Of a stretch of 64,000 nucleotides of DNA, positions 11,000-44,516 are shown piece by piece. Position 1 is the stretch's first letter; each line of letters opens with the position of its first letter. Source of the DNA: Candidatus Thorarchaeota archaeon (GTDB lineage Archaea > Asgardarchaeota > Thorarchaeia > Thorarchaeales > Thorarchaeaceae); contig DXJO01000041.1 of the NCBI GenBank assembly GCA_019057475.1, positions 96,001 to 160,000 on the forward strand, read 5' to 3'. The notes under the pieces are model-generated. The model did not search any database, was not told the DNA's origin, and worked only from the letters and a program-made list of their open reading frames with translations. Position numbers and translations under genes: made by a program.

Positions 11000-11092
11000 G
11001 GAATTTTAGGCCATCTTAGGACCTTGTGGCAAAAATGCGCAGTCACGGATGGTCAAATGGCTGCGTGTTAACGGATGATTCACCGCTTCGAT

Positions 11093-12205
11093 TCAAATAT
11101 ACCGTTGCAGTGATAGGCCAGAGATGACGCATAATGTACTGGTATGGTGGCATTGTTTGTCGGCTTTGAGAGACTGAAGCCAAGCTGCCAAAACAGTGGT
11201 GGCATTGGATTCGTCCAGAAGAAGAGGATAATGGTCTACACTCCCAGCTGATCCTGGGACTAGGTAGACTCCGCTGCCATCATAGTCGCACCAGTAGTTG
11301 CCCTGATTCACTCCGTTATCCCATTTGTTGTCTAGTCCATCATCTATGGCATTACTCATTTCATTCCAACCAAGGCGATTGTAAACCAATGAGATGTTTC
11401 CCGTCTGTTCACCAAGCCTAATGCCTACGCCCGTATTGTTCAACACTGTGTTGTATCGGATAGACCAGTTTGTGCAAAGGATTTGCACGTCAACTCCTTC
11501 CTGATTCTCTGAGATGGTGTTGTTCCACAGCTTGCAGGAGTCAGAGAACTGTGCTAGCACACCCCATTCGTTGTGACAAACTCTGTTGTGGGAGAGATCA
11601 ACACCCACGCTGCCAATGATAATAGCACCATAGGTACAGTTACGTATCTCGCTGTTCTCAAATCGGAGGTCGTGAGATTCCGTGGCGTTTACGCCTGCGC
11701 ACGATGCTTCGATCGTGCAGTTATGGACAGTACAATCACGGGAGAGGAAAAACTGCATACCATCATCATTAGAGTGTACAACACATGATTCCAGATACGC
11801 ATTCGAAGAATTGTATATCGAAATAGCTGCACAGTCTGCACTCAACTCAGGTGTGGAACTCAAGAAGCAGTTCCGTACGACGAAGTGGACTGTGATATCT
11901 GAGATGTCTACGCATTCTGCATCGCTTCTAATCCAGAGATTCTCAATCAGATACGGGCTGCTTGATGTGCCATTACCTTTCCAGCCTTCTTCAGCGGCCT
12001 GATTCGCAAATTCAGTGTTGCTCCTGAGAGTGATAGGAGGATGCTGCGTATATGTGCCCCCCTCAATCGTCGTTATGTCACCCCCGGGCGGCGTTTCGTC
12101 AAGGACTATCATCAGGAAGCCGACAGATGCGATTGCCATGACCACGACTACTACGACGAATATCTTTGCTGTCTGATGCGATGACACCTTCACCACGTCC
12201 CTCAT
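11093..12205 (-). CDS. NosD/CASH-type parallel beta-helix protein with N-terminal membrane anchor
   Basis: GNGT..SPYLIENL, repeated N.I..N..G beta-helix units, NKWD....GNYW.DY.G.G.Y.VPG..GSVDHYPL. Confidence 0.85.
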   Translation of the reverse strand: MRDVVKVSSHQTAKIFVVVVVVMAIASVGFLMIVLDETPPGGDITTIEGGTYTQHPPITLRSNTEFANQAAEEGWKGNGTSSSPYLIENLWIRSDAECVDISDITVHFVVRNCFLSSTPELSADCAAISIYNSSNAYLESCVVHSNDDGMQFFLSRDCTVHNCTIEASCAGVNATESHDLRFENSEIRNCTYGAIIIGSVGVDLSHNRVCHNEWGVLAQFSDSCKLWNNTISENQEGVDVQILCTNWSIRYNTVLNNTGVGIRLGEQTGNISLVYNRLGWNEMSNAIDDGLDNKWDNGVNQGNYWCDYDGSGVYLVPGSAGSVDHYPLLLDESNATTVLAAWLQSLKADKQCHHTSTLCVISGLSLQRYI

Positions 12206-12357
12206 AGATACTCATTGTGAGCATATTAGGTTTGACAAGATTCGATGTCACAAGCGAGTGGAGATTGTCTAAATGTGGCATCAATAAACAATTGAAAAAA
12301 GGTTTGCAGCAATTAATTATGATAGAAGATATGTAATGCCCGAACAGGTAATGAACC

Positions 12358-13098
12358 ATGACTGAAAGCAAACTGGGTTTTGATACTCACAGAAGCTCCC
12401 TGGCTATTCATTACTTCGCATTCACATTGGCGTATTGTGCGAGTATTGTCTTCGCAGTCATACTGGGAGCCACTTTTGGCCTAGTCCCGCCTATCGACTT
12501 CTGGTTACGAATTGCAGGGCCTTTTTTCATTCATGTTTCGATTATAGGACTGTGGCTCTTCATCGTATGTCTGCCGATCTTATTCGTGACTAACCTGAAC
12601 GTTATCTGGTTCGGACGGGTTCTCAAGCAGAGATTCGTTTCTACTTCCGATGCCATCAGGACTGTACTCGGGGTGATTGTTGCGGCTCCTTTGCTCATTA
12701 TCGCGGTGTGTATCTACATTCTTATGGGCCACATATTCATCTGGCCGGGCGTATTACTTGTCTTAGGCCCGATCCTGTCTGGGTTCCCTCTCGTCTATGT
12801 ACTCGTCATCATTGGGATTATGACCAAAAACACAAAACAACTCATCCTAGACTGTGTAAAGGACCCTCGTTTTTGGTTTGTGTCCCTCTTGTTGATTGTC
12901 ATTCTTCTCGTCCCCCTGGCCGCCCTAGGTCTCCCATTACAAAAGGGCTATTTCCAGTACTTCCAGTCAGAAGAGCTCTTCCTAATGAACATCCCTGGCC
13001 TCGTTGTCAGGGCACTGATGATAGCATCTGTCTTACCCGCCATACCACTTGCATTCCTTCGGCTCAGAGATGAAATTCTCTTTGACCCACCAGATTAG
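12358..13098 (+). CDS. Hypothetical multi-pass membrane protein
   Basis: 246 aa, about 6 TM segments. Confidence 0.7.
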   Translation: MTESKLGFDTHRSSLAIHYFAFTLAYCASIVFAVILGATFGLVPPIDFWLRIAGPFFIHVSIIGLWLFIVCLPILFVTNLNVIWFGRVLKQRFVSTSDAIRTVLGVIVAAPLLIIAVCIYILMGHIFIWPGVLLVLGPILSGFPLVYVLVIIGIMTKNTKQLILDCVKDPRFWFVSLLLIVILLVPLAALGLPLQKGYFQYFQSEELFLMNIPGLVVRALMIASVLPAIPLAFLRLRDEILFDPPD

Positions 13099-29535: not shown

Positions 29536-29586
29536 GGGCAATAGGCCATGCGCCTGCTGCCCACTGCAACTTCTTTTTTCATTTTT
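29536..29586 (+). terminator. Hairpin plus T-tract after the ribosomal operon
   Basis: GGGCA...TGCCC stem followed by ttcttttttcattttt. Confidence 0.5.
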
Positions 29587-29929
29587 ATCAGGCTGATATA
29601 GCTGAAAAGCTATAACACGCTCTGAGTACATTCATAGACAGGAAGAATCTGATGACCTTCTATCCGGGAAAGGAATGACCAAGATGAAGATAGTGTATCA
29701 TCCTCTGATGAGAGAAAGCTATGACCGTACACCCGCAGGAGCCCCTGGGAGATTGGAGACCTCTGTGAAAATCCTGAGCAAACACCCAGACTACGAGTTT
29801 GTAAAGGCAAGGTCTGCGACCGAAGAAGAGATCAATCGAGCTCATGCTCCGGGTCACATCGAGAGGGTGAGGCGGGACTATGACTCAACAAGGGAGGACC
29901 TACTGTATCAGGTAGCGACCTTGGCGGCA
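29572..29929 (+). repeat. Left copy of ~360 bp diverged direct repeat (promoter region plus first ~85 codons of the deacetylase)
   Basis: Colinear with 43622-43979 at a constant offset of 14050 nt with scattered substitutions. Confidence 0.93.
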
Positions 29930-29995
29930 ACACTATCGGTTATTATCGATCATGCTGATGAGCTTAATTCAGAAATATCGAAGTTCATCGGTTAA
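29675..29995 (+). pseudogene. Truncated HDAC-family gene fused to the C-terminal tail of an alpha/beta hydrolase
   Basis: First ~85 aa nearly identical to 43725..44516; then VIIDHADELNSEISKFIG, resembling hydrolase ends such as FVIIEKYEEFNNEVMNFI (38438 ORF). Confidence 0.85.
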
Positions 29996-30004
29996 AATAC
30001 AGAT

Positions 30005-30433
30005 CTAGAGTGACATAATCTTGATGAGGGCTTCACCTTCAATGACAACTTCTTGGTTCTGATTTGTACATAAGGTCTTCAAAGTGACTCGTTGCTTCTC
30101 ATCGTTAAGAGAAGCTACCTCGACCCTAGCAGTTATTGTGTCACCAATTCTGACTGGCCCCATGAAATTCATACTCTGTCCTAAATATATCGTCCCGGGA
30201 CCGGGTAATTTCATGCCGATGGCAGCACTGATGAACGAAGCAGTGAGCAGTCCATGAGCAATTCGTCCATTAAACATCGTAGTCTTAGCCCATTCTTCAT
30301 CGAAGTGCAATGGATTGTAATCTCCACTAAGGTCTCCGAATGTCTGAATATCCTCCTCTGTGATAGTATGTGTTACCTCTGCAAATTGTCCAATGTGAAG
30401 ATCAGAATATTTTGTCGCTTTTATTTCATTCAC
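30005..30433 (-). CDS. MaoC-family (R)-specific enoyl-CoA hydratase
   Basis: F...SGDYNPLH.D...A....F.GRIAHG, LPGPGTIY..Q...F..PV.IGD; start at GTG 30433. Confidence 0.92.
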   Translation of the reverse strand: MNEIKATKYSDLHIGQFAEVTHTITEEDIQTFGDLSGDYNPLHFDEEWAKTTMFNGRIAHGLLTASFISAAIGMKLPGPGTIYLGQSMNFMGPVRIGDTITARVEVASLNDEKQRVTLKTLCTNQNQEVVIEGEALIKIMSL

Positions 30434-31451
30434 CTTTCCACATTCCCCATTTGATTGTAATCGCATTCCATGACCAGCCAATCCCAGCAGCGGTCAAAAC
30501 AACAATGTTCCCATCCTTTATCTTTCCATCCTTTAGACCTTCTTCAACTGACACAATCGAATCGTTTTGACCCATATGTCCCCATTCATCGAAATATGTT
30601 GCTTGATTATATGGATGAACACCTAGTTCATTTGCTACGAACTCAAAGGCACTTCTCTTCATTCTGATGAGCCCAAGATAGTCAATATTCTTTCGAGTAT
30701 ATCCACTCTTCTCTAATGATTCATCTACGACTTTCAAGAAATTGGTCATTGATAGTCTATCAAGACGGTCTTTCAACCCTGGAGGATCAGTGACATCCAA
30801 GTACTGCATGCGTTTCTCAATCGCCTCACATGTGATAGGAATGACAGTGCCACCTGCAGGTACATAGACATCTTCTGAAAATTGGCCATCTGTGATGACG
30901 CTTCCCTCTAGGATGACATTTTGTGGATAATCATTACGAAGAATCATGGCGACTCCACTGGCAGCTAAATCATGCATGAATCGTGTCCGGATATTCGAGT
31001 AGTCTATGAGATCACAGTTCCTGTATCCACTGCCAATTAGAACCCGTTTGTATCCTTGGGTTTCCATTAAAGACTTGGCAATGATCATGGCAACAACAAT
31101 TGTGCCGCATCTCTGGTTGACATCAAACGCCCAAGCTTTTGTTGCACCCACCTCGTTTTGGAACTTGATGGCATAGGTTTGCATAGGATGCTCTGCGTAA
31201 ACCTCGCCAGCCCAAATCACTAAGTCAATATCCTTTGCAGGATCTAGCCCCGCTCGTTCTATAGCAATCTTTGCAGCCTTCACGCCCATTGCCACAGTGT
31301 GATCATCTGGACCAGGCACAGCCTTACTCTTCATACCCATCTTCGTTTCAATTATCTCTGCTGGAGTTCCAGATTGTTCAGATATGTATTGAGCAGTATG
31401 CCTCTCAGGAGGTATATAGGTGCCAATCGCTTCAATTCCAATCTTTCTCAT
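30426..31451 (-). CDS. 3-oxoacyl-ACP synthase III (FabH/KASIII)-like enzyme 1, non-canonical active site
   Basis: IGTYIP, AFDVNQRCG catalytic Cys, LIRMKRS, WGHMGQND, VLTAAGIGWSW. Confidence 0.88.
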   Translation of the reverse strand: MRKIGIEAIGTYIPPERHTAQYISEQSGTPAEIIETKMGMKSKAVPGPDDHTVAMGVKAAKIAIERAGLDPAKDIDLVIWAGEVYAEHPMQTYAIKFQNEVGATKAWAFDVNQRCGTIVVAMIIAKSLMETQGYKRVLIGSGYRNCDLIDYSNIRTRFMHDLAASGVAMILRNDYPQNVILEGSVITDGQFSEDVYVPAGGTVIPITCEAIEKRMQYLDVTDPPGLKDRLDRLSMTNFLKVVDESLEKSGYTRKNIDYLGLIRMKRSAFEFVANELGVHPYNQATYFDEWGHMGQNDSIVSVEEGLKDGKIKDGNIVVLTAAGIGWSWNAITIKWGMWKGE

Positions 31452-32983
31452 TTCGCATCCTCCAACTCTCTTTTCAGAATTTTGCCTGTTGCGCTTTTGG
31501 GTAGGTTTCCACGAAATTCGTAATGCTTAGGAATCTTATAACTTGCAAGTTTATCATCCATATACTGTCTTATTTCGTCCTCTGCTAGTGATTCTCCATC
31601 CTTCAAGACAATGAACACCTTTCCGACTTCTCCCCACTTTTCATGTGGCACTCCAATTACAGCAGCCTCAAGTATTGCAGGGTGCTTGTATAGTACATCT
31701 TCAATCTCTGAGGGAAATACATTTTCTCCCCCTGAAATGAACATATCTTTCTTGCGACCAACTATATAGTAGAACCCATCACTATCACGCATGACGAGGT
31801 CTCCTGTATGCACCCATCCATCAGATTCAATGACTTTTGCTGACTCTTCAGGTTCCTCCCAATAACCACTGAATGTATGAGGTCCTCTCAACATCAACTC
31901 ACCTACCTCCTCATCTGACAGCGTTACATTGTCATCATCAACTATCTTCATATCACAGTGGAATGCAGGAAAACCAACAGATGTTGGTCTTTCCTTAACA
32001 GCATCATCAGGTAAGTAGAAATTATTAGGTCCTACTTCAGTGAGTCCATACCCCATTTTTAGAATCTTACCTCTCTCCCAGTATTTTTCCATTATCGCAA
32101 CAGGACATGGAGCACCTCCACTGATGAACGATCTAACATGTTCAAAGTTTGTCTTCTTGAAATTCGATGATTGAGATATCATGTTAAACACGGTAGGGAC
32201 GCCAATCACGATTGTGCATCTCTCGCTCTCAACTACTCTCAGTGTTTCTTCAGGATCAAAGTCGCCCATGATTATACTTAATGCTCCAAGATGATAGAAT
32301 GGTATGAGAAGTACATTGATTCCTCCTGTATGAAAGAGTGGAAAGAGTAGTGGTTGAATATCATCTGGTCTAAGTCCCCATGAAACAATCGTATTAACTG
32401 AGTTCCAGAATACCAATCTGTGTGATAGAACAGCACCTTTGGGTAGGCCTGTAGTTCCGCCTGTGAAGACGATCAAGAAAGGATCATCCATTGTGATTGC
32501 TGGTCGTTCTACTGCACTGGAGGATTTTCTGGTCATGAGCGAATAAATATCGGGGTCAGTATCAAACATCTTATTTCCCATGACGACTACAAGCTGTTTT
32601 TCAAGGAGCGGACGGATTTTCCCAAACTGGATTCTCAAATTGGGGTCATAGAATACTATAGAGGGGTTTGTCTTTTTCAAAAGGTATTCAGTTTCGGGTG
32701 TGGTAAGCCGAATGTTAAACGGAGTCAGAATGGCTCCTATCTTTCCACAAGCAAAGAGGATGTCAAGAAATTCGAACCTGTTCTTAGAGTAGATGCCTAC
32801 TCGGTTTCCCTTTTGTACTCCTGAATCAAGTAATAATCTTGCTACTTGATTCGCTCGTTTATCCATTTCTTCGAATGTGTATCTCTTATTCTGGATGTTG
32901 TCAACTATTGCTTCCTTTTTTGGAGTCAAGAGCGCTCTTCTTCCAGTCCAATCTCCTATCCAAGACCAATCTTTCAGGTTCAT
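31448..32983 (-). CDS. Acyl-CoA synthetase (AMP-forming, FadD/MenE-like) 1
   Basis: FTGGTTGLPKG, GYGLTE, TGDL, GRKKDMFISGGENV, KSATGKI. Confidence 0.93.
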   Translation of the reverse strand: MNLKDWSWIGDWTGRRALLTPKKEAIVDNIQNKRYTFEEMDKRANQVARLLLDSGVQKGNRVGIYSKNRFEFLDILFACGKIGAILTPFNIRLTTPETEYLLKKTNPSIVFYDPNLRIQFGKIRPLLEKQLVVVMGNKMFDTDPDIYSLMTRKSSSAVERPAITMDDPFLIVFTGGTTGLPKGAVLSHRLVFWNSVNTIVSWGLRPDDIQPLLFPLFHTGGINVLLIPFYHLGALSIIMGDFDPEETLRVVESERCTIVIGVPTVFNMISQSSNFKKTNFEHVRSFISGGAPCPVAIMEKYWERGKILKMGYGLTEVGPNNFYLPDDAVKERPTSVGFPAFHCDMKIVDDDNVTLSDEEVGELMLRGPHTFSGYWEEPEESAKVIESDGWVHTGDLVMRDSDGFYYIVGRKKDMFISGGENVFPSEIEDVLYKHPAILEAAVIGVPHEKWGEVGKVFIVLKDGESLAEDEIRQYMDDKLASYKIPKHYEFRGNLPKSATGKILKRELEDAK

Positions 32984-33345
32984 TGTTCAATCTCTTTTGA
33001 TTCAGAATGAAAACATTCTCAAGTATTAGTCTTACTGAAGATAGAGTTACTATTAGACACTTATTACTTTGAAAATCTATTAGAGTCTTGCATAAGAGAA
33101 CTATCTGATTGACTCTTTGTTCCATATCCTCGAATGCGTATCTTGCAAGAATGTCACCTCTCCGCCTATTCCTCTCCTTAGAATCAATGGTGTCTTTCAT
33201 TTCATTCTCCCGAGGTGCTTTACTATTTGTTCCAGATTTGCATTAAGAGGCAAAATCTGTCCAAAAGACATATTATTGGCTGAAATCAAACTCCTTAAGG
33301 ATAACCAACCTTTGATGTATCATATCAGTTCAGGAGGAAGTTGAA

Positions 33346-34140
33346 TTGTCCTCAACGAATGAGTTCATCCTTAGCACAAGTGGGTTAACCAAGAATTTTG
33401 ATGGTCTAATTGCCGTTGATGATGTAAGTCTAGATGTCGAAAGAGGTTCGATAAAATCAATCATCGGCCCGAATGGTTCAGGCAAAACTACTTTTTTTAA
33501 TCTCATTACAGGAGCCCTCCCTCCTTCGTCTGGAAAGATATATTTCGAAGGTCAAGATATAACTCGATTTTCAATGCATCAACGTACACGACAAGGTATA
33601 TCACGATCGTATCAGATCACGAATATTTTCCCATATCAGACAACATTTGAAAATATACGGTTGGCAGCTCAGGGCTGTAGTGGTGCAAAAGTAAATTTCT
33701 TTGGAATGTTAAAGAAAGCAGGCTCATTTAGCGAGTTTCATGAGAAAGTAATTGATATAGCAACACTTGTGGGTCTTAATCCTGCGAGACTCTATGTCCC
33801 AGCCGCTTTGATCCCACATGCCGAACAAAGAAAACTTGAAATCGCGATGGCCCTCGCTACCGAGCCGAAACTCCTCTTACTTGACGAACCTGCTGCTGGA
33901 ATATCAATAGAAGAGATACCAGATGTTATTGATGCTATTTTGCGGGTCAAAGAATCCTATGGGGATCAACTAACGCTATTAGTAGTTGAACATAAAATGG
34001 ACATTGTTATGAAACTCAGTGAGGAGATTGTTGTTCTTTCAGAAGGAAAAATGATTGCAAAAGGTTCTCCAAAGGAGATCCAAGAAAATGAACAAGTATT
34101 GACAGCTTATCTCGGTGGTACAGATGAAAAACTTGCTTGA
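33346..34140 (+). CDS. livG: Liv-type ABC transporter ATPase
   Basis: IIGPNGSGKTT, RSYQITNIF, LLLLDEPAAG, VEHKM. Confidence 0.9.
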   Translation: MSSTNEFILSTSGLTKNFDGLIAVDDVSLDVERGSIKSIIGPNGSGKTTFFNLITGALPPSSGKIYFEGQDITRFSMHQRTRQGISRSYQITNIFPYQTTFENIRLAAQGCSGAKVNFFGMLKKAGSFSEFHEKVIDIATLVGLNPARLYVPAALIPHAEQRKLEIAMALATEPKLLLLDEPAAGISIEEIPDVIDAILRVKESYGDQLTLLVVEHKMDIVMKLSEEIVVLSEGKMIAKGSPKEIQENEQVLTAYLGGTDEKLA

Positions 34141-34843
34141 AATACAAAATGCTCACGTATACATTGGTTCCTTCTACATTCTGCAAGGAATCTCACTAGT
34201 CGTGCCTAAAGGAGAAGTTACTCTATTACTGGGTAGGAACGGCTCTGGAAAAACTACTACAATGAAATCAATACTCGGTATATATCCACCAAAAGAAGGA
34301 AAGATTGTCTTCAAGGGTGAGGAGATATCCAATCTCCCTACCCATAAGATAGTCAACAAAGGCATGGGATATGTCCCTGATACAAGAAGGATATTTGGAA
34401 CACTGACGGTTGAACAGAATCTAGTTGTGTCAATGAGGAAGGGAAGCTCGCGAGAAGACATGCAAAAACGATTGGATCTAATCTTCGATTTGTTTCCTGA
34501 CATGAAAGGGTTTCTGAAACAGAGAGCAGGTACTCTATCAGGTGGTCAACAGCAAATGCTAGCTGTTGCCCGTGCATTGATGAATGAAAATGATTTGTTG
34601 CTCATCGACGAACCTACAGAGGGCTTGAGTCCCCTTTTAGCTAAGAACCTTATCGACTCTCTTGACAGACTAAAGGAATTTGCTACTATCTTACTGGTTG
34701 AACAGAACTTTCGGACAGTGTCTAAGCTGGGTGATAACTACTACATTTTCGATAATGGAAAAATCGTTCATGAGGGCACCAACATGTCTGAGTTAATAGA
34801 CGACAAGGCACTTGTTGCACAATACTTGGGGGTAAGCATTTAA
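34124..34843 (+). CDS. livF: Liv-type ABC transporter ATPase
   Basis: LGRNGSGKTT, AGTLSGGQQQML, DEPTEGLSP, LVEQN. Confidence 0.9.
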   Translation: MKNLLEIQNAHVYIGSFYILQGISLVVPKGEVTLLLGRNGSGKTTTMKSILGIYPPKEGKIVFKGEEISNLPTHKIVNKGMGYVPDTRRIFGTLTVEQNLVVSMRKGSSREDMQKRLDLIFDLFPDMKGFLKQRAGTLSGGQQQMLAVARALMNENDLLLIDEPTEGLSPLLAKNLIDSLDRLKEFATILLVEQNFRTVSKLGDNYYIFDNGKIVHEGTNMSELIDDKALVAQYLGVSI

Positions 34844-35955
34844 TGACTATGCAAACAAAGAGATTCTCTCCTCGGGACTACTTGGAGGAAAACCCACAGG
34901 TTCGCAAATTGTTGAGGATTACAGTGGTGATTGCACTCATAATAATAGGGGGTCTATTGGTTTTAGCTGCGATAGACGTCTATACATGGAACGGATTCGT
35001 TGTAAGGGCTAGCAAATCACTAGTTAATGGTCTTGCACTCAGCATGTTGCTCTTCTTGATGGTCTCTGGTTTCTTCTTGATCTTTGGTCTATGCGACGTA
35101 ATCAATTTCGCGCACGGCGCGTTCTTTATGTTGGGAGGTTTCATGGGTTTCGTAATCTATCTCGGAACCGAGGCTGTTTTCCTAGACCCAGCCCTACCGT
35201 TCTATCTTATCTTCGGAGCTAATCAATTTGCCTTGTCAGTCACGGCCTTTATTGTAAGTGCCCTTGGAGCCGCAGCAGTTCTGGCTCTTATTGGTGGAGG
35301 AATAGAGTTCTTTACAATTCGGCGGCTTTACGGTAATCCTATCGCTCAGATACTGCTGACAGTTGGTTTTATGTTCGTTATCACTCAGATTGTCGAGATT
35401 ATCTGGGGGCCTTCACAGTTTTCCTATTTCATTATTTCCAATTCGCAAATAACCTACTTCTTCATTAGTGGTTTACTTGATTTTGGCGGAGGGCTGCAAT
35501 TTGCTGTTTACCGTATTTTCTTGATTTTTCTAGGGTTAGCAGTTGCTGGATTAATGTTTATAGGGTTCAGAAAGACACGTATCGGACTCCTGGTACAAGC
35601 AGGTATAGAAGATTCAGAGATGGTTGAAGCATTAGGGACTGATATCAGAAAATTGTTTACAATTGTATTTATGTTGGGTGCAGGTCTTGCGGGACTATCA
35701 GGGGCTGTCCTAGTCCCGTGGATTGGAGCAAACTCGGGTCATGGTCTCACATACCTCATATTCGCATTTGTCATAGTTGTCGTTGGAGGCGCCCATTATG
35801 GTCGCCTTGAAGGGACTTTCTTTGGTGCACTTATAGTCGGTCTATCAATTCAATTTACATCATATTTCATTCCATTTCTTGAGAACATTATTGTATTCAT
35901 AATTATGGCGATTATTCTGATAGTAAGACCAGGAGGATTAACGGGTCATGAATAA
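34843..35955 (+). CDS. livH: Liv-type ABC transporter permease
   Basis: VINFAHGAFFMLG, TRIGL.V.A, VVVGG, RPGGL.G. Confidence 0.9.
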   Translation: MTMQTKRFSPRDYLEENPQVRKLLRITVVIALIIIGGLLVLAAIDVYTWNGFVVRASKSLVNGLALSMLLFLMVSGFFLIFGLCDVINFAHGAFFMLGGFMGFVIYLGTEAVFLDPALPFYLIFGANQFALSVTAFIVSALGAAAVLALIGGGIEFFTIRRLYGNPIAQILLTVGFMFVITQIVEIIWGPSQFSYFIISNSQITYFFISGLLDFGGGLQFAVYRIFLIFLGLAVAGLMFIGFRKTRIGLLVQAGIEDSEMVEALGTDIRKLFTIVFMLGAGLAGLSGAVLVPWIGANSGHGLTYLIFAFVIVVVGGAHYGRLEGTFFGALIVGLSIQFTSYFIPFLENIIVFIIMAIILIVRPGGLTGHE

Positions 35956-37552
35956 TGAAAGAAATATCGTAAGGAGACTGAAAGTAATTATCCTTAGGAT
36001 ACCCTCCATGCTGTCGAACAATAGAGCAGTAATAGCTGTTCTTGCGTTTTTGTATCTACTCCCATTGGGTACAGCAGCAAGTACGTCCCCCGTTCGAGCT
36101 TTGCTCTTCCTCATTACTCAGATAATGGTTTTTAGTCTTCTTGCAATGTCTTTTGATCTACAATTAGGACGTGCATCGCTTCTGAATTTCGGACATGTTG
36201 CACTTTTTGGTGTGGGCGCCTATTTCATGGCATTTACTTTGGACGCAGATTTTCTCCCCCCGCCCTTTAATCTCATAGCTGCGATTCCATTTCCCCTTAC
36301 ATTAGTTGTGGCAATGATGATTGGCGGTGGTCTCGGGCTCATAATGGGACTGACGACGAGCCGCATGAGAGGCACAGCGTTTGCATTTATTGGTTTAGCG
36401 ATAGCGATGTTCATCTATAATTTCTTCGCTGAAAATCCTGGTCTTTCTGGGGGAGAAACAGGACTGAGGGTACCAACTCCTGATATCATTAGGACTGCTC
36501 CTTTCTATCTGCTCTTTGTCACACTTGCATTTGTATTCCTTGCCGCATTTATTGGAATGGTCGTCCTTTACATAAAGAAGCGGACAGAACCTATTGGTCT
36601 AATCCTGGTCACTCCAGTTATGGTAGCCTTTACAGGTGTCCTATTGATTTTTGGGACAAATGTCTTTGGACCTGTGTTAGTATTCATTGCCTTTCTTGGG
36701 ATGATTTTCCTCTTCTGGATTGAACGGAGCAAATCCATTAGTGACCCTCTTCAATATTCTGAGAACCGAACATTCACAGGGGAAGTAAAACCAACTAACA
36801 AACTGACTACCTACGTATTACCTTTCATTATCATAATAATCGTCCTAATTGGCGTGGTTGTTAGTTTTGGTTCAAACATTGCTCAAATGGTAACACTGTG
36901 GATTGAAGATAGCTCCACATTTTACTTCACTATTCCAGTGCAATTCTATCTAGTATTGACTTGTCTTGTGATAACCTATGTTTTCATAAAACGATTAATT
37001 GCATCACCATTCGGGAGAATGGTTACTGCGGTCGCTCAAAATGAAGAACGGGCTGAAGCTTTAGGCTACAATAGTTATCGTGCCAAAATAGTTGTGCTTG
37101 TTATAAGTGGGGCAATTGCCGGCCTTGCAGGGGCGTTGTATGCACCATTCATTAGAATTATTGATCCGCATACCACATTAGGAGTCGAAATAACAATCAA
37201 TGCAATGTTGTACACCATTATCGGAGGAATTGGTACACTACTGGGTCCAATACTCGGAACAGGAGTAGTGGTGTACTCTGAGCTAAATCTAGTGGACTTC
37301 ATAAGGGAGGGGCTAGGCCTACCTGGACAATTATGGTTGGTCGGGCTAGGAGTGATGTACATATTCATTGTCCTATTCATGCCTCTTGGTATCGTTGGTT
37401 CTATTGGACGAAGGGCTGGCTCTATCAAAGATAGATTACGACAATTAAAATTAGGTCAATTTGAGTTTGGAATAAAGGATACCGATTATTGGGTCTTTGG
37501 ATTACTGGGTACAATAGGTTTGTTCCTATTGTTGTTGATCGTCAGTCTTTAG
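35948..37552 (+). CDS. livM: Liv-type ABC transporter permease with large membrane insertion
   Basis: LNFGHVALFGVGAY, GGETGL, SPFGR...AVAQNE.RAEALG, IIGGIGTL.GP. Confidence 0.88.
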   Translation: MNNERNIVRRLKVIILRIPSMLSNNRAVIAVLAFLYLLPLGTAASTSPVRALLFLITQIMVFSLLAMSFDLQLGRASLLNFGHVALFGVGAYFMAFTLDADFLPPPFNLIAAIPFPLTLVVAMMIGGGLGLIMGLTTSRMRGTAFAFIGLAIAMFIYNFFAENPGLSGGETGLRVPTPDIIRTAPFYLLFVTLAFVFLAAFIGMVVLYIKKRTEPIGLILVTPVMVAFTGVLLIFGTNVFGPVLVFIAFLGMIFLFWIERSKSISDPLQYSENRTFTGEVKPTNKLTTYVLPFIIIIIVLIGVVVSFGSNIAQMVTLWIEDSSTFYFTIPVQFYLVLTCLVITYVFIKRLIASPFGRMVTAVAQNEERAEALGYNSYRAKIVVLVISGAIAGLAGALYAPFIRIIDPHTTLGVEITINAMLYTIIGGIGTLLGPILGTGVVVYSELNLVDFIREGLGLPGQLWLVGLGVMYIFIVLFMPLGIVGSIGRRAGSIKDRLRQLKLGQFEFGIKDTDYWVFGLLGTIGLFLLLLIVSL

Positions 37553-37619
37553 GATGGAGTTGATGGTATGATCAAGATTTCATCAAGAAAGAAGGTTGAA
37601 CGAAAAGTGGGTGATTGTC

Positions 37620-38438
37620 TTGCCATATGAAACTATCGGAGACATCGATATCTATTACGAGATTCATGGACCACCTGAGGCTCCACCACTTGTGTTGATA
37701 GGAGGATGGGCTAGTTATCGTTGGATATGGTTTCGACAAATTCCTGCCTTCAAAGAAAGATACAGATGTGTTGTGTTTGATAATCGTGGAGCAGGAAGAA
37801 GTTCCAAGCCTGACCATCCATATACTATGGAAATGTTCGCTGATGATGTTGTTGGTCTGATAGAAGCATTGGATATCGAAAACGCACATATCATAGGGAT
37901 TTCAATGGGTGGATTCATTGCGCAGCAAATTGCGATTTCCTATCCCGAAAAGGTTCGAAGCTTGATCATTGTTTCTAGCAGCTTTGGAGGGCCTAATTCT
38001 ATTCCTATGGATGATAAAACAATGGCCATGTTAATTGCTCTTCCAACTGAAACAATATCAAAAGAGCAAGCGAGGGAGATGCGCTATAAAGCTACTTTCA
38101 GTACACAATTCCTCCAAGAAAACAGGTTAGTGATAGATCAGATAGATGAATGGGCTGAACGGCATCCTACGCCGGTATATGCACAAGTGCATCAAAGCTC
38201 AGCAGCAAAATCGTTTAATGCTGAATCGGAAGTGAAACAAATATCTACACCGACACTTATCTTACACGGAGATAGTGACCTTTGTTTTCCACCTAAGAAT
38301 GCAGAACTGCTAGCTAATAGCATATCCACATCGAAATTGAAAATTATAGAGGGCGCATCACATTTTGTCATCATTGAAAAGTATGAAGAGTTCAATAATG
38401 AGGTAATGAATTTTATAGACGAAGTGGAAAAAGGATGA
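37620..38438 (+). CDS. Alpha/beta hydrolase
   Basis: FDNRGAGRS, GISMGG nucleophile elbow, HGDSD, ASH. Confidence 0.9.
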   Translation: MPYETIGDIDIYYEIHGPPEAPPLVLIGGWASYRWIWFRQIPAFKERYRCVVFDNRGAGRSSKPDHPYTMEMFADDVVGLIEALDIENAHIIGISMGGFIAQQIAISYPEKVRSLIIVSSSFGGPNSIPMDDKTMAMLIALPTETISKEQAREMRYKATFSTQFLQENRLVIDQIDEWAERHPTPVYAQVHQSSAAKSFNAESEVKQISTPTLILHGDSDLCFPPKNAELLANSISTSKLKIIEGASHFVIIEKYEEFNNEVMNFIDEVEKG

Positions 38439-38511
38439 CTTATTCCTGAGCCCAAAAGGAAGGTGATTTGGCAAGGAAAAGAATGTTGGGCCCGATAAGC
38501 AAACTTAGAGG

Positions 38512-39531
38512 ATGATGTTTATGGTTCGTTCAGCTGTGGTCACAGGTCTGGGAATGTATGTTCCTGAAAAGATGTTGACAAATGAAGAAATTGAGCTAGT
38601 GCTTGATCGTCCTGGAACAGCAGATTGGTTGGTGGAGAATGTTGGCATCAGACAACGTCACGTCATGGCTGAAGATGAGGTGACATCTGATCTTGCTCTT
38701 CATGCTGGTCGTGAAGCATTAGAAAATGCAGGATTGGAAGCAGACGATCTCGACCTAATCATTTTGAGTACTGACACACCGGACTATCTATCTCCAGCAA
38801 CATCAGTAGTGGTTCAGCACAAACTCGGTGCGAAGAATGCAGGTACTTTTGACGTCAATTGTGCTTGTGCAGGTCTGGTTACTTCTTTGGACATAGCCTC
38901 CCGCTATATTAGAACAGATTTTGACATCAATTCGGTTTTGGTGATTGGGGCATACGGAATGACCAAATTTGTTGATTGGACAGACCATTATACTTGTACT
39001 TTGTTTGCGGATGCTGCAGGAGCAATGGTACTGCAGGCCAGTGAGGATAGAGAAGGATTCATTGCCTCTGAATTAATAGCGGATGGCTCATTCCATGACC
39101 ATTTGGGGATATTTGTCGGAGGAACGGCAGAACCCCCAACAGTTGAAGCGATCCAGAATCACAGGCACCATCTAGCTTTTCGCAAACGCTTTCCGGCCGA
39201 TACAAACCTTCAACATTGGCCAACTATGACAAGAGATTGTGTATCAAAGGCTAATCTGTCCATCGAGGATATCGACTGGATTTTCTTCACTCAGGTGAAC
39301 ATACGAACTATTGAGGCGGTAATGAAGGAACTAGGTATGCCACTTGAGAAGACTCACAATGTTCTGGATAAATGGGGGTACACGGGTTCAGCTTGTATTG
39401 CATTGGCGATGTACGATGCCATTGAACAAGGGAAACTTCCACCTCCCGGACAGGGAAACGGCGAGAATATAGCACTCTGCTCATCCGGGGGAGGTTTCAA
39501 CATGGCTGCCGCCGTTCTAAGATGGTGGTAA
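38512..39531 (+). CDS. 3-oxoacyl-ACP synthase III (FabH/KASIII)-like enzyme 2, non-canonical active site
   Basis: GLGMYVPE..LTN, GIRQRH, FDVNCACAG, FFTQVN, WGYTGSAC, SSGGG. Confidence 0.88.
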   Translation: MMFMVRSAVVTGLGMYVPEKMLTNEEIELVLDRPGTADWLVENVGIRQRHVMAEDEVTSDLALHAGREALENAGLEADDLDLIILSTDTPDYLSPATSVVVQHKLGAKNAGTFDVNCACAGLVTSLDIASRYIRTDFDINSVLVIGAYGMTKFVDWTDHYTCTLFADAAGAMVLQASEDREGFIASELIADGSFHDHLGIFVGGTAEPPTVEAIQNHRHHLAFRKRFPADTNLQHWPTMTRDCVSKANLSIEDIDWIFFTQVNIRTIEAVMKELGMPLEKTHNVLDKWGYTGSACIALAMYDAIEQGKLPPPGQGNGENIALCSSGGGFNMAAAVLRWW

Positions 39532-39617
39532 TGGATTTTTATTTTGGTTGTGGCTGATTACACAAGAAGCGATTATGCCTATTGAGCAAGAATAGAACTC
39601 ATATCGAGGGGATACTA

Positions 39618-41168
39618 ATGGTTAATCAGTTTGACTATCTATCCAAGAGAGATATCTTCTCTCCCGAGGCTGAAGCTCTAGTTGATGTAGAAACCGGGAA
39701 AAGATATTCGTATAGAGCGTTCAACAAACGCGCGAATAAGGTTGCCAACTTCCTTCAACAAGTAGTTGAATTTCAAAAGGGGGATCGTTTATGCATTCTT
39801 GCTCAAAATAGCTTGGAATACTGGGAAGCATTTTTCGGATGTCAGAAGTGCGGAGGTATTTTCAGTCCACTCAACTGGCGTTTGGTCGCCCGAGAATTAG
39901 CAGGTTTGGTCAATGATCTTAATCCCTCCGTGTTACTCTATGATTCAGACTTAGCTAATGTTGCATCAGAGTTGAAGCAAGAAGTCACGGTTGATCACTG
40001 GATCTCATTGGATTCAAAAGGAACAGAAGTGGAAGGTTCTCTATGCTATGAGGAAGTTATGAATAAAGCAGCATCCAGTCCATCTAATGCTGTAGATCTC
40101 TCTTATGAAGATCCAATGGGCATCGTGTTTACCGGGGGGACAACGGGACTACCAAAAGGTGCAATGATTACTTACAATCAAGTTGCATTCAATACTCTTA
40201 GTACCATTAGGGACATCCTTCCAGGTGATGTCTACATAAATCATCTACCCCTATTCCATGTCGGTGGACTCTATGTGTATGCCATTCCACTCTTCATTTT
40301 GGGCGGAAAAGTAGTCCAGATGAAGAGATGGGATCTTGACACCTTAGTGGGTGTGATCAACAAGGAAAATCCCAACTTCTTCTTTGCCGTGCCCACGCAA
40401 TACCGTATGCTGATGAACCATCCCGATTTTCGATCAATTGACTTCAGTAACGTTCGGTTCTTGACTTCTGGAGGTGAACCCTTACCTCTGGACATCATCA
40501 AGACATACAGGGAGGCACATGGTGTCAAATTCAAACAAGGGTTTGGAATGACAGAAGTTGGACCAGGATGTTTTGCTCTTGACCCATGGGACGCTGAGCG
40601 AAAGATTGGCAGCATTGGTACTCCTAACTTCTTCATTGATGCAAAAGTAGTTGATCCTGAAACTGGAAAGGATTGTGATGCAAATGAGGTGGGTGAACTT
40701 CAATTTAGAGGGCCCACGGTGACTATCGGTTACTGGAATCGTCCAGAGTTGAATAAGACACTCCTAGATGAAGGCGGCTGGTTTCGGACAGGTGATATGG
40801 TGTATTTTGATGAGGAAGGGTATTACTACGTAGTTGATCGAGTGAAGGACATGTTCATCTCTGGGGGTGAGAATATCTATCCAAGAGAGATTGAGAAGCT
40901 CTTAGAAGAACACCCAAAGATTGCTCAAGTACAGGTGATTGGAGTACCTGATTCCAAATGGGGGGAGGTAGGACGCGCCATTGTTGTCTTGAAGGAAGGA
41001 CAAGAAGCCTCGGAGGAAGAGATAATCGACTATTGTGGAAGGAAATTGGCCAGATTTAAGATTCCAAAATCAGTACGCTTCGCAGAAAGTTTCACACAAT
41101 ATATCTCAGGGGCCGGAAAGATTCTGAAGCGAAGATTAAGGGAAGATTTTGGCCAAGAGGAGAAATGA
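39618..41168 (+). CDS. Acyl-CoA synthetase (AMP-forming) 2
   Basis: FTGGTTGLPKG, QGFGMTE, TGDM, DRVKDMFISGGENIYP, GKILKR. Confidence 0.93.
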   Translation: MVNQFDYLSKRDIFSPEAEALVDVETGKRYSYRAFNKRANKVANFLQQVVEFQKGDRLCILAQNSLEYWEAFFGCQKCGGIFSPLNWRLVARELAGLVNDLNPSVLLYDSDLANVASELKQEVTVDHWISLDSKGTEVEGSLCYEEVMNKAASSPSNAVDLSYEDPMGIVFTGGTTGLPKGAMITYNQVAFNTLSTIRDILPGDVYINHLPLFHVGGLYVYAIPLFILGGKVVQMKRWDLDTLVGVINKENPNFFFAVPTQYRMLMNHPDFRSIDFSNVRFLTSGGEPLPLDIIKTYREAHGVKFKQGFGMTEVGPGCFALDPWDAERKIGSIGTPNFFIDAKVVDPETGKDCDANEVGELQFRGPTVTIGYWNRPELNKTLLDEGGWFRTGDMVYFDEEGYYYVVDRVKDMFISGGENIYPREIEKLLEEHPKIAQVQVIGVPDSKWGEVGRAIVVLKEGQEASEEEIIDYCGRKLARFKIPKSVRFAESFTQYISGAGKILKRRLREDFGQEEK

Positions 41169-41977
41169 CAATGCCAGTCAGCAAAGTAAATGGAATAGAC
41201 ATCTATTATGAAATCCATGGTGAAGGTGAACCAGTTATCTTTGGAAATGGTGTTTTTTCTAATACATTAGGTTGGATTAATCAAGTCCCAGTTTTCTCCA
41301 AAGAGTATCAAGTCATTCTGTACGATATGCGTGGGCAAGGACAGAGCGACAAGCCAGAATCTCCCTATTCCTTTGATATCCATGCCGAAGATCAAAAGGC
41401 ACTTCTTGAAGACATTGGCATTTCCAAAGTTCATCATGTTGGAATTAGCTACGGAGCCGAACTCGGTCTGGTCTTTGCGCTGAAGTATCCTGAAATGTTG
41501 AAGAGCCTCGTTGCTTGTAGTGCCGTTTCGCATGTGGGTCCCTTGCTCAATGAGATGTGTCAATTATGGAGATATGCCTGTGAGCTTGGAGATCCTGAGT
41601 TATTTTATCACGCTACTGTCCCCTTAAATTTTGGAGAAACTTTCATTCGAGAAAATACCGCTATTTTGGAACAGGCGAAGGTTCGTTATACTCAACTAGA
41701 TTATCCACCACTTGTGAGATTATGTGATGCTTTCCTCATGCTTAATATCACAGACCAACTATCAAAGATCAAAACACCCACCTGTGTTATCGGGGGTGAG
41801 AAGGACATCGTAAAACCGGTTTATCCGTATTCGCGTATGATTCATGATAAATTGCCTAATTCGGAAATGGTCATTGTTCGTGATTCGGGTCATGCTGTAA
41901 CATTCGAAAAACCTGAAGAGTTCAACAGCATAGTTCTAGGGTTCTTACACAAACAATCCCAGAAACACACTCTTTAG
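41165..41977 (+). CDS. Alpha/beta hydrolase
   Basis: YDMRGQGQS, GISYG, GEKD, SGH. Confidence 0.9.
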   Translation: MTMPVSKVNGIDIYYEIHGEGEPVIFGNGVFSNTLGWINQVPVFSKEYQVILYDMRGQGQSDKPESPYSFDIHAEDQKALLEDIGISKVHHVGISYGAELGLVFALKYPEMLKSLVACSAVSHVGPLLNEMCQLWRYACELGDPELFYHATVPLNFGETFIRENTAILEQAKVRYTQLDYPPLVRLCDAFLMLNITDQLSKIKTPTCVIGGEKDIVKPVYPYSRMIHDKLPNSEMVIVRDSGHAVTFEKPEEFNSIVLGFLHKQSQKHTL

Positions 41978-42119: not shown

Positions 42120-43574
42120 ATGAAAAAAATAAGAACGATATCTCTATCTCTTTCGTTGCTATTATTAGTATCCATTTTCCTACCTTGTTTCTTTGTTAAA
42201 CCAGCTGCTGCACAAACAACTCCAATTAAGATTGGAATTTTCACCCCCGAAACAGCAGGTCTGACAGCTTATGGACCTTGGACAAAACAAGGCTTCGAGT
42301 TGGGAATGGTGTATGCAACCACGATGATGGGATATGACAATGAGAACATGACCGAAGCAGGTCGGCCCTATGAACTTCATTATTATGATACGAAAGGTTC
42401 AGTGGTCGATGCAGCAACCAAAGCAGTAGAAGCTATCGAAACCGATGGTATTGACATTCTCGTCGGAGCAACTTCTAGTGCAGTTGCCGCAGCAATAGCA
42501 CCTATTGCCGAAGATTACGAGAAGCTATATTTCATATCTCCAGCTGCTGCTTCTTCGCTAACTGCAGAGGACTTTAATCCGTACATTTTCCGTATCGCCA
42601 GAAATAACTGGCATGATGCCTATGCAGGCGTCACGTATGCTATGGATGAAAATTACCTCAACTATTCGAGATTTGCCTTTCTTGCTGCTGATTATTCCTT
42701 TGGATATAGTGGCGTTCAATCAATGAAAAGTGTAATAGAGGACAGGGGAGGATCGGTGCACAGTATCCAGTATGCATCTCTTTGGGATACTGATTTCTCT
42801 CAAGAGATTGATGCTCTCAAAGCTGCTGATGCAATATGGGGTATTGAGTATTTGTTCATCATTTGGGCTGGAAACTTCGCTTATCTATACAATGATTTAG
42901 CAACATACAATCTTGCAGCTGACATGGAAATTGCTGGAGCATGTATTGATATCCTTTCCATGAACTCCATTGAAGCGAGTTTGACTGCTCCAGGTGCGAC
43001 CTACATCAATTCCACTGGGCTCTGTCTATATGGTTATGAACTACCAAACAATGCGGTTAATGACTGGATGGTGGATCAACATGTCACCAGAAACATTAAG
43101 CCAAATGGTCAATATGGACTCCAATATAAAGTTCCAGAGCTTTTCACTGCAAGTGGGTTTGCTACGGCACAATTCTTGGTAGATGTGACGAATGCTATCC
43201 CGGACCTTAATACTGGTTTGATGATCAACTATCTCGAAAGTGGTGTTACCATCAACACCCCGAAGGGACCAACATACTTGAGACCAGAGGATCATCAAGG
43301 GCTTGCGGAGATGTATATCGCGAAAGCTGTGAATGATACCCGACCTGGGTCTGAAACAGAAAATCTCATCATTGCCGAATTGGTTGAGATCCTCGACCGT
43401 AACGCGGTTGCACCTCCAATTGCGTCTGGTTATACACCAGGTGGATTTGCACCAACAACAACAACAACAACAACAGCACCACCCCCAGCATTTGATTACT
43501 TGACTATCACAGTGATTGGTGGACTTGGAGTAGTAATAATCGTGCTCATTGTGCTTTTAGTGCGGAAAAAGTAA
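42120..43574 (+). CDS. Liv-type ABC substrate-binding protein with Thr-rich linker and C-terminal TM anchor
   Basis: Signal peptide, IKIGI, DILVGATSSAVAAA, YIFR, TPKG...RPEDHQ, poly-Thr, TM plus RKK. Confidence 0.88.
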   Translation: MKKIRTISLSLSLLLLVSIFLPCFFVKPAAAQTTPIKIGIFTPETAGLTAYGPWTKQGFELGMVYATTMMGYDNENMTEAGRPYELHYYDTKGSVVDAATKAVEAIETDGIDILVGATSSAVAAAIAPIAEDYEKLYFISPAAASSLTAEDFNPYIFRIARNNWHDAYAGVTYAMDENYLNYSRFAFLAADYSFGYSGVQSMKSVIEDRGGSVHSIQYASLWDTDFSQEIDALKAADAIWGIEYLFIIWAGNFAYLYNDLATYNLAADMEIAGACIDILSMNSIEASLTAPGATYINSTGLCLYGYELPNNAVNDWMVDQHVTRNIKPNGQYGLQYKVPELFTASGFATAQFLVDVTNAIPDLNTGLMINYLESGVTINTPKGPTYLRPEDHQGLAEMYIAKAVNDTRPGSETENLIIAELVEILDRNAVAPPIASGYTPGGFAPTTTTTTTAPPPAFDYLTITVIGGLGVVIIVLIVLLVRKK

Positions 43575-43586: not shown

Positions 43587-43636
43587 AAGGTTCAAGCTGG
43601 TTTAACTTGAACCTTTACTCCTTTTTTTTATTTTTT
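43587..43636 (+). terminator. Hairpin plus T-tract ending the island operon
   Basis: AAGGTTCAAG/CTTGAACCTT 10-bp stem followed by long T runs. Confidence 0.65.
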
Positions 43637-43979
43637 GTCAAGTTGATGTGGCTGAAAAGCTATAACACGCTCTGAGTACATTCATAGACAGGAAGAAGCT
43701 GATGCCCGTCTATCCGGAAAAGGAATGGCCAAGATGAAGATAGTGTATCATCCTTTGATGAGTGAAAGCTATGACCGTACACCTGCAGGAGCCCCTGGAA
43801 GGCTGGATACCTCTGTGGAAATCCTGAGCAAACACGCAGATTATGAGTTTGTGGAGGCAAGGCCTGCAACCGAAGAAGAGCTCAATCGAGCTCATGCTCT
43901 GAGTCACATCGAGAGGGTGAAGCGGGACTATGACTCAACAAGGGAGAACCTATTGTATCAGGTAGCGACCCTGGCCGCA
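43622..43979 (+). repeat. Right copy of ~360 bp diverged direct repeat
   Basis: Colinear with 29572-29929. Confidence 0.93.
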
Positions 43980-44516
43980 GGAGGCGCAATCATGACCGCG
44001 GAGATAGCGGTTCAAGGTGAGCCCGCCTTCGGTCTCATAAGACCTCCGGGGCATCATGCTTCTCACTCCTCGTACTGGGGATTTTGCTACGTGAATAATA
44101 TTGCAGTTTCGCTGTTGCACCTCAAGGCAAAAGGGCTGATAGAATCGGCCTACATTCTAGATTTTGATTTGCATACAGGAGATGGTAACATCAATATCCT
44201 GGGTGATGAGAAGGGGATTATCATCCATAATCCAAGCGGAAATGGCGATGACGCATTCTTGGCAGATGTGAAGCGGGGGCTGGAAGCGGCTCCAGATGTT
44301 GACATTATCGTCGCCTCAGCCGGGTTTGATCAGTACGAACACTGTTGGGGTGGAAACATATCCACTGACGCATTCAAACGAATTGGGTGTCTGATGCACG
44401 AGTTTGCTGCGGAGCGATGCGAGGGACGCAGATATGGACTACTTGAGGGGGGGTACAACTTCGAGGATCTGGGCAAGAATGTCCTTGCATTCTGTGAGGG
44501 CTTGAGAGGCAAGTGA
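43725..44516 (+). CDS. Zn-dependent histone deacetylase/AcuC-family deacetylase (intact copy)
   Basis: RPPGHH, GFC, DFDLHTGDG, SAGFD, LEGGY. Confidence 0.93.
   Translation: MAKMKIVYHPLMSESYDRTPAGAPGRLDTSVEILSKHADYEFVEARPATEEELNRAHALSHIERVKRDYDSTRENLLYQVATLAAGGAIMTAEIAVQGEPAFGLIRPPGHHASHSSYWGFCYVNNIAVSLLHLKAKGLIESAYILDFDLHTGDGNINILGDEKGIIIHNPSGNGDDAFLADVKRGLEAAPDVDIIVASAGFDQYEHCWGGNISTDAFKRIGCLMHEFAAERCEGRRYGLLEGGYNFEDLGKNVLAFCEGLRGK

Follow-up and report, generated by a model that had tools for sequence, protein, structure and literature searches.

Two KASIII-fold protein families with apparently rebuilt active sites share a conserved importer, ligase and hydrolase cluster in a Candidatus Thorarchaeota archaeon

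The 64,000-nucleotide stretch of a Candidatus Thorarchaeota genome analysed here (GenBank assembly GCA_019057475.1, contig DXJO01000041.1, positions 96,001–160,000 of the forward strand; hereafter the window) encodes two proteins with the fold of β-ketoacyl-acyl carrier protein (ACP) synthase III (KASIII), which we refer to as KAS1 (341 residues, 30426–31451, minus strand) and KAS2 (339 residues, 38512–39531, plus strand). Public records list both as "3-oxoacyl-ACP synthase III". With somewhat better than even confidence we favour the view that KAS1 and KAS2 are separate functional FabH-fold families with rebuilt active sites which belong to one conserved operon and are not starter enzymes of fatty-acid synthesis. 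What was observed directly are the residues with their conservation, the fold, the synteny and the failure to detect an ACP or KAS I/II; all that is proposed below on chemistry and substrate is deduced.

Alignments with Escherichia coli FabH, calculated with HMMER against the structure 1hn9 of the Protein Data Bank and with MAFFT against the fabH gene of strain MG1655, place the FabH residues Cys112, His244, Asn274 and Ser279 onto Cys115, Ile262, His292 and Asp297 of KAS1 and onto Cys119, Thr260, Tyr290 and Cys295 of KAS2. The cysteine is thus kept in both enzymes and the His/Asn pair of FabH in neither, as a preliminary description based on the sequence alone had noticed. The two open reading frames (ORFs) and all motifs quoted there are real, with NQRCG, LIRMKR and GHMGQND starting at residues 112, 261 and 291 of KAS1 and NCACAG, FTQVN and GYTGSAC at residues 116, 259 and 289 of KAS2. 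On the minus strand the key residues of KAS1 are encoded at 31107–31109 (Cys115, TGC), 30666–30668 (Ile262, ATC), 30663–30665 (Arg263), 30576–30578 (His292, CAT) and 30561–30563 (Asp297); those of KAS2 on the plus strand are found at 38866–38868 (Cys119, TGT), 39289–39291 (Thr260, ACT), 39379–39381 (Tyr290, TAC) and 39394–39396 (Cys295). Cys295 of KAS2 and Asp297 of KAS1 share the same alignment position. The likely start of KAS2 is Met4 (coordinate 38521), as in most homologues.

The conservation of the KAS1 site was analysed in 83 full-length relatives, collected from an exhaustive HMMER search (783 representative clusters at E ≤ 1e-10, the weaker of which include ordinary FabH) and from close Asgard homologues. 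Gly291 and Asp297 are present in all of them, His292 in 98% and Cys115 in 90%, with Ser replacing the latter in six members; position 87 is acidic in 98%. Position 263 is more variable (His 53%, Gln 29%), being Arg in the Thor/Loki subclade, including 12 of 12 Thorarchaeota loci read, and Lys in the Thorarchaeota homologue P0077; it aligns to Gln245 of FabH and not to His244. A one-residue shift making Arg263 the His244 equivalent was considered and rejected, as the secondary structure of both models and ungapped family members of the TNQVK/PHQAN type put Ile262 there. Glu83 was likewise rejected as a glutamate of the 3-hydroxy-3-methylglutaryl-coenzyme A (HMG-CoA) synthase type, Glu being found in only 25 of the 83 members. 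As a side observation, many matches to the family model PRK06840 in the Asgard family f12, genus g25 (e.g. loci L018, L019, L020 and L023–L025), were reported with one in-frame TAA/TAG, possibly merely the terminal stop.

For KAS2, 78 homologues from 80 genomic loci (52–96% identity) were compared, which originate from Thor-, Heimdall- and Hodarchaeota, Chloroflexota, Myxococcota, Acidobacteriota, Ignavibacteriota and Actinomycetota. Cys119, Thr260, Tyr290 and Cys295 are invariant in all 78. Compared with FabH (31–35% identity), KAS2 and its homologues invariably have Thr for His, Tyr for Asn, Cys for Ser279 and Ser/Thr for Phe304; the context residues Gln261 and Asn263 are kept, and Trp39 corresponds to Trp32 of FabH, the tryptophan stacking on the adenine of CoA. 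Since Thr260 and Tyr290 do not vary and the conservation of His292 and Asp297 amounts to 98–100%, the substitutions reflect neither sequencing errors nor decay. The earlier statement that the triads had been "lost" therefore holds for the canonical His and Asn but not for the sites, whose replacements are strictly conserved in the 83 and 78 homologues. As judged from the alignments, both sites are rebuilt and kept under strict conservation, and are not decayed copies of FabH.

Both proteins match the Pfam domains ACP_syn_III and ACP_syn_III_C, and the more specific family models separate them. KAS1 is a member of NF005308 (PRK06840, an uncharacterised family with the generic name "3-oxoacyl-ACP synthase"), with 412.5 bits against a cut-off of 315 and a match over model positions 4–336 of 339, and KAS2, with 188.7 bits, is not. 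Neither reaches the cut-off of 292.1 bits of the FabH model TIGR00747 (KAS1 120.3 bits, KAS2 241.6 bits). KAS2 scores 268.5 bits with NF006829 (PRK09352 subfamily, "beta-ketoacyl-ACP synthase 3"), over the cut-off of 249, and is therefore named an ordinary KASIII by annotation pipelines despite the missing His and Asn. The KAS2 family comprises 441 genomic relatives. The Thr/Tyr clade of KAS2 is set apart by a branch of length 2.04 (100% support) in a quick maximum-likelihood tree, with E. coli FabH and six FabH-like representatives containing His and Asn as outgroup. The Asgard KAS2 sequences form one clade with 100% support; the order of the Asgard and bacterial clades is not resolved in this tree and hence no donor is named. 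Nearly all close homologues of KAS1 and KAS2 alike come from Thorarchaeota and other Asgard archaea.

The AlphaFold models of KAS1 and KAS2 have the KASIII fold, with predicted local distance difference test (pLDDT) values of 97.1 and 91.2, respectively. The KAS1 model matches structures of BioZ, FabH, PqsC and PqsD with Z values of 38–40, and the KAS2 model superimposes onto FabH structures with a root mean square deviation of 1.5–1.8 Å over 310–320 residues and a Z of about 46 (E. coli FabH: 1.6 Å over 317 residues). Ile262 of KAS1 and Thr260 of KAS2 take the same place in the two models, one residue past a strand and four ahead of a helix, and neither the predicted secondary structure nor the superposition with FabH gives a sign of His/Asn equivalents elsewhere, so that the observation of the preliminary description stands. 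FabH (E. coli 1hn9/6x7r, B. subtilis FabHA 8vd9), BioZ and PqsD share with KAS1 and KAS2 the fold, the dimer-type architecture and the cysteine at the N-terminus of the same helix. The differences concern the His244/Asn274 pair, in whose place KAS1 has Ile/His and KAS2 Thr/Tyr, and the genomic setting, which is an operon of importer, ligase and hydrolase genes and not a fab cluster. OleA and the HMG-CoA synthases, non-decarboxylative condensing enzymes with a Glu base, belong to the same superfamily as KAS1 (Z 36 for OleA, 31–35 for the HMG-CoA synthases); both keep the His at the canonical site, which KAS1 does not. The acidic position 87 of KAS1 may be noted beside their Glu base. PhlA, MucABC and the archaeal HMG-CoA synthase complex are also among the structural matches (Z 34–35.5). 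Look-ups in the ESM Atlas returned only generic KASIII cluster names.

The rebuilt site of KAS1 has a counterpart in KASIII homologues acting as acyltransferases. ChlB3 contains the triad Cys113-His296-Asp301, in which the cysteine is activated by the histidine and the histidine is backed by the aspartate, while Phe266 lines the pocket (PMC9573744). The corresponding triad of DpsC is Ser118-His297-Asp302, the DpsC-like clade consisting of loading acyltransferases and CerJ being an O-malonyl transferase (PMC12308425). Residues 289–333 of KAS1 align gaplessly to chain positions 314–358 of a 373-residue and 297–341 of a 356-residue DpsC construct, which puts His292 and Asp297 onto His297 and Asp302 of DpsC when a 20-residue tag is assumed from the chain lengths of 373 and 353. 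KAS1 thus has the Cys/Ser-His-x4-Asp arrangement of the DpsC, CerJ, ChlB3, ChlB6 and OxaC type. The spacing of Cys115, Ile262, His292 and Asp297 matches that of Cys113, Phe266, His296 and Asp301 in ChlB3, with a hydrophobic residue at the position of the FabH histidine in both, and the serine nucleophile of DpsC recurs in the six KAS1 relatives mentioned above. From its primary structure, KAS1 carries the alternative Cys-His-Asp triad of the acyltransferase-type homologues, with a presumed contact between His292 and Cys115. The likeness to CerJ- and ChlB-type enzymes, suggested in the preliminary description for both proteins, accordingly applies to the active-site residues of KAS1 and does not extend to KAS2, which has Tyr and Cys at the positions of the His and Asp and lacks the triad. 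KAS1 also differs from these enzymes in that an ACP, polyketide or sugar-tailoring context is missing around its gene, and in a distribution resembling that of primary metabolism, over Asgard archaea and many bacterial phyla.

Partners of a type II fatty-acid synthesis were looked for in the whole genome (3.34 Mb, 56 contigs, 96% complete). No match to the PP-binding domain of ACP (PF00550) was found in it, although short ACPs can be missed, a search for KAS I/II (PF00109) gave only weak thiolase matches, and no protein exceeds the FabH cut-off of TIGR00747. An acyl-CoA carboxyltransferase is present. Besides several thiolases, the only other condensing enzymes of the KASIII/thiolase type of note are encoded by an HMG-CoA-synthase-like gene followed by a thiolase gene (G000:C7:27524-28952), the usual pair of the archaeal mevalonate pathway.

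In the window, the KAS genes lie in a 14-kb cluster of two divergent operons. The minus-strand operon consists of Lig1, an AMP-binding acyl-CoA ligase encoded directly upstream of KAS1 (31448–32983), KAS1 itself and, downstream of it, a MaoC-type (R)-specific enoyl-CoA hydratase with the hydratase motif GDYNPLH (30005–30481). The plus-strand operon starts with two ATP-binding cassette (ABC) ATPases of the LivG/LivF (UrtD/UrtE) type (33346–34140 and 34115–34843) and two Liv-type permeases of the BPD_transp_2 family (34843–35955 and 35948–37552). They are followed by the α/β-fold serine hydrolase Hyd1 (GISMGG, 37596–38438) directly upstream of KAS2, the acyl-CoA ligase Lig2 (39582–41168) directly downstream of it, a second α/β-fold serine hydrolase, Hyd2 (GISYGA, 41165–41977), and a substrate-binding protein of the Liv/HAAT type (Peripla_BP_6, 42120–43574). 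The GxSxG serine is present in both hydrolases. The nearest solved relative of Hyd1 is the esterase Est1, and Hyd1 also gives weak matches to models of polyhydroxyalkanoate (PHA) depolymerases; those of Lig2 are fatty-acyl-CoA and feruloyl-CoA synthetases and FadD13. Just upstream of the cluster region, Spt5 (NGN-KOW) and the ribosomal proteins L1, L10 (archaeal P0 type with insertion domain) and L12 are encoded.

The cluster is bracketed by a 300-nucleotide direct repeat, whose copies (29574–29873 and 43624–43923) are 90% identical and 14,050 nucleotides apart. In it the beginning of a histone-deacetylase-family gene is duplicated, belonging to a truncated deacetylase ORF of 106 residues (29675–29995) in the left copy and to a deacetylase-domain gene (43725–44516) in the right. 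The GC content is 42.2% inside the cluster versus 47.8% and 48.6% in the flanks. Repeats and low GC content fit an acquisition of the operon as a unit; no integrase was found among those ORFs that were annotated.

The same gene set is found in Heimdallarchaeota LC_3 and in most of 33 Asgard loci, Thorarchaeota accounting for at least 30 loci, and many loci of Chloroflexota carry it with parts that are 33–58% identical. The order in Chloroflexota is KAS1-like, (short-chain dehydrogenase/reductase, SDR), Lig1, hydrolase, KAS2, Lig2, (hydrolase, thiolase, DUF35), MaoC, binding protein and ABC genes. Across the loci the adjacency of KAS2 and Lig2 is the most constant, and the pairing of Lig1 with KAS1 is kept in Asgard and bacterial loci. 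Of 47 bacterial loci, 15 have an SDR gene at a distance of up to 10 kb from KAS2, five have a thiolase/DUF35 pair there and two have PHA-type genes. The SDR, of the FabG/ketoreductase type, adjoins a KAS1 homologue in three unrelated bacterial contexts, MaoC adjoins KAS1 in Asgard archaea, and regulators of the IclR and TetR type flank the bacterial versions of the cluster. One short metagenome contig (P0243) had no usable gene context.

Three loci show individual features. In the bacterial locus L109 (GCA_964399355.1, CAYNQL010000003.1, 4210–17035) a CoA transferase of the acetyl-CoA hydrolase/transferase family stands in place of Lig2 beside the KAS2-type gene, and after the KAS1-type gene come an SDR, a Liv importer, two hydrolases and an SCP-x-type thiolase. 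On a Logan contig (SRR28019974_49741, L013:327-2319) two tandem KAS2-type genes directly follow an α/β hydrolase gene; both products contain FTQIN and GYTGSAC and are about 45–48% identical to KAS2. In a deltaproteobacterial metagenome-assembled genome (locus L009, Ga0366837_1001082, 4378–13019) a KAS1 homologue with 63% identity and an SDR are located among a PhaR-like regulator and esterases of the polyhydroxybutyrate (PHB)-depolymerase type. Most of the other loci show no such connection with polyhydroxyalkanoate metabolism. A salvage of PHA or 3-hydroxybutyrate oligomers, suggested by the latter locus, was therefore set aside and is kept as a minor rival, with PHA-type genes at only the two bacterial KAS2 loci and no class III PhaC in the genome of the window.

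Because of the layout of Liv importer, hydrolases, ligases and MaoC, we read the cluster as an uptake-and-processing operon, the likely role of which is to take up an organic acid or ester and to process it in the form of CoA thioesters. The Liv-type ABC system would import the compound, the two serine hydrolases could cleave esters, the two ligases would form CoA thioesters, and MaoC, in bacteria together with the SDR, would handle 3-hydroxy- and enoyl-CoA intermediates. Within such a pathway KAS1 and KAS2 would most likely, to judge from their residues, be covalent acyl-cysteine enzymes acting on CoA rather than ACP thioesters, and decarboxylative priming of fatty-acid synthesis as catalysed by FabH is the least likely function of either. 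In KAS1, an acyl-CoA delivered by Lig1 would acylate Cys115, activated by His292 and Asp297 as in CerJ and ChlB3, and the acyl group would be passed on in a ping-pong manner to an acceptor different from the malonyl-derived carbanion that is stabilised by His and Asn. For this acceptor an O- or S-nucleophile, corresponding to an ester/thioester exchange, is a possibility of rather less than even weight; the making or breaking of C–C bonds on a 3-oxoacyl-CoA without decarboxylation is given a slightly smaller share, and some other acceptor is thought unlikely, at about a quarter of the weight. A weaker proposal can be made for KAS2, in which an acyl-CoA from Lig2 would acylate Cys119. Hydrogen bonds to a carbonyl would probably be donated by the hydroxyl groups of Thr260 and Tyr290 instead of His and Asn, and the invariant Cys295 would stand behind Tyr290, at the position of the aspartate in KAS1.

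Several observations weigh against the assignment as non-priming acyl-cysteine enzymes of a CoA-dependent uptake route. The sequence of KAS1 is nearer to FabH (phmmer E 1e-21 to 1e-25) than to DpsC (8e-6) or ChlB3 (4e-5), and its fold is slightly nearer to BioZ, FabH and PqsC (Z 38–39.6) than to ChlB3 (Z 36.1) or CerJ (Z 35.0). The triad shared with DpsC, CerJ and ChlB3 may therefore have arisen by convergence, and the reaction does not have to be the same. For a Cys/Thr/Tyr site, no precedent was found in the literature searches, which makes the mechanism of KAS2 a conjecture. The solved relatives of the binding protein and the ligases, as well as of Hyd1, are generic and say little about the imported substrate. 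The genome also contains an AcpS-like phosphopantetheinyl transferase (G000:C42:322725-323039, 58.7 bits), so that a divergent carrier protein is conceivable. Finally, the neighbouring SDR and MaoC fit a 3-oxoacyl chemistry of the Claisen or thiolase type at least as well as an O-acyl transfer.

The last point leads to an alternative which we consider unlikely but the most serious one, namely that both proteins are still condensing enzymes, with one or both forming a 3-oxoacyl-CoA from the ligase product and malonyl- or acetyl-CoA with alternative residues as oxyanion hole or base. They would then feed an ACP-independent elongation, with reduction by the SDR and dehydration by MaoC, toward a fatty-acyl or small lipid product. 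This would be in line with the KASIII fold, the retained cysteine, the FTQVN context with Asn263 in KAS2, the frequent His at position 263 of the KAS1 family and the placement of the SDR and MaoC genes beside those of KAS1 homologues; the carboxyltransferase of the genome could supply the malonyl-CoA. However, both enzymes lack the canonical pair for decarboxylation, the His244 equivalent of KAS1 is hydrophobic as in the acyltransferase ChlB3, and the cluster contains no enoyl reductase. In addition, the importer, the esterase-type hydrolases and the bacterial IclR and TetR regulators point to catabolism or salvage rather than to synthesis.

A catabolic variant, to which we assign a still smaller probability, treats KAS1 and/or KAS2 as thiolase substitutes, splitting a 3-oxoacyl-CoA by a retro-Claisen reaction via the acyl-cysteine. 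The route would proceed by ester hydrolysis, CoA ligation, hydration by MaoC, oxidation by the SDR and cleavage, and could dispense with an acyl-CoA dehydrogenase if the substrate is already unsaturated or 3-hydroxylated, as in hydroxycinnamate esters or (R)-3-hydroxyalkanoate oligomers. Hydrolases, ligases, MaoC and the bacterial SDR are indeed present in the cluster and an acyl-CoA dehydrogenase is not. Liv-type binding proteins beside CoA ligases are typical of the uptake of aromatic compounds or organic acids, and a feruloyl-CoA synthetase is among the nearest solved relatives of Lig2. The weak matches of Hyd1 to PHA depolymerase models and the deltaproteobacterial KAS1 homologue among PhaR and PHB-esterase genes also speak for this route. 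On the other side, the five bacterial loci with the thiolase/DUF35 pair already contain a true thiolase, PHA-type genes are near only two of the 47 bacterial KAS2 loci, the similarities of ligases and binding protein are generic, and we know of no KASIII-fold enzyme that serves as a thiolase.

The preliminary description had also considered a complementary heterodimer. KASIII enzymes form dimers, and in PqsBC two different proteins of this kind are known to pair. PqsBC, like KAS1 and KAS2, combines two KASIII-fold proteins with incomplete triads in a cluster with a CoA ligase and a hydrolase, and PqsC is one of the top structural matches of KAS1 (Z 38.6). The two genes occur in one cluster in Asgard archaea and again together in distant bacteria (e.g. 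loci L059 and L109). Nevertheless, an obligate PqsBC-like assembly of two subunits that complete each other appears very unlikely, as it does not fit the distribution. Among 151 sampled Asgard genomes the KAS1 family, judged by the NF005308/PRK06840 cut-off, is present in 40 and KAS2-type matches in about 10, none of which lies outside the family to which the window belongs; nine of these 10 genomes also have KAS1, and 31 have KAS1 without KAS2. In bacteria, a KAS1-like gene accompanies KAS2 in 11 of the 18 loci with full 10-kb flanks and is missing within that distance in seven, and no KAS1 is in view beside the tandem KAS2-type genes of the Logan contig. Since each family often occurs without the other, the two are linked in a pathway in many genomes and neither needs its partner. 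Unlike PqsB, which lacks the cysteine, both proteins keep it within a conserved site, and in the window their genes are not adjacent but 7 kb apart on opposite strands, each beside its own ligase. Each enzyme would be expected to act as its own homodimer. That one of the proteins is a non-catalytic scaffold of a multi-component acyltransferase, after the model of PhlA in PhlABC or of the KASIII-like subunit of the archaeal thiolase/HMG-CoA synthase/DUF35 complex, is hardly credible: these complexes and MucABC are among the structural matches and some bacterial clusters include the thiolase/DUF35 pair, but this pair is absent from the Asgard clusters and most bacterial ones, and the invariant cysteine and its surroundings in both families argue for catalysis.

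Returning to KAS1 and KAS2 as two separate families, the name "3-oxoacyl-ACP synthase III" can be read as bacterial-type fatty-acid synthesis in Asgard archaea and thereby bears on the debate about the "lipid divide". Against this speak the active sites, the failure to detect ACP and KAS I/II and the surrounding operon, and the genes are better left out of the evidence for such a synthesis. KASIII homologues with altered triads are well known. What KAS1 contributes is a large family, distributed like primary metabolism, with a Cys-His-Asp variant, and what KAS2 contributes is a residue set for which no description was found for this fold. Both families are conserved and, as far as the literature can be searched, unstudied; our searches found no paper describing the KAS1 family (PRK06840) or the KAS2 family. 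The whole 14-kb operon behaves as a unit common to bacteria and several Asgard lineages, and is present here as a low-GC insert between direct repeats. It is a tentative idea, and rather unlikely as it stands, that KAS2, with its nucleophilic Cys, the hydroxyl pair of Thr and Tyr and a Cys in the second shell, represents a new catalytic solution in the thiolase superfamily and that, together with KAS1, it defines an ACP-free, CoA-only pathway across Chloroflexota-type bacteria and Asgard archaea in which FabH-fold enzymes are catabolic. If true, they might for instance split 3-oxoacyl-CoAs, or move acyl groups from imported esters onto CoA, by which the energy of the ester bond would be kept.

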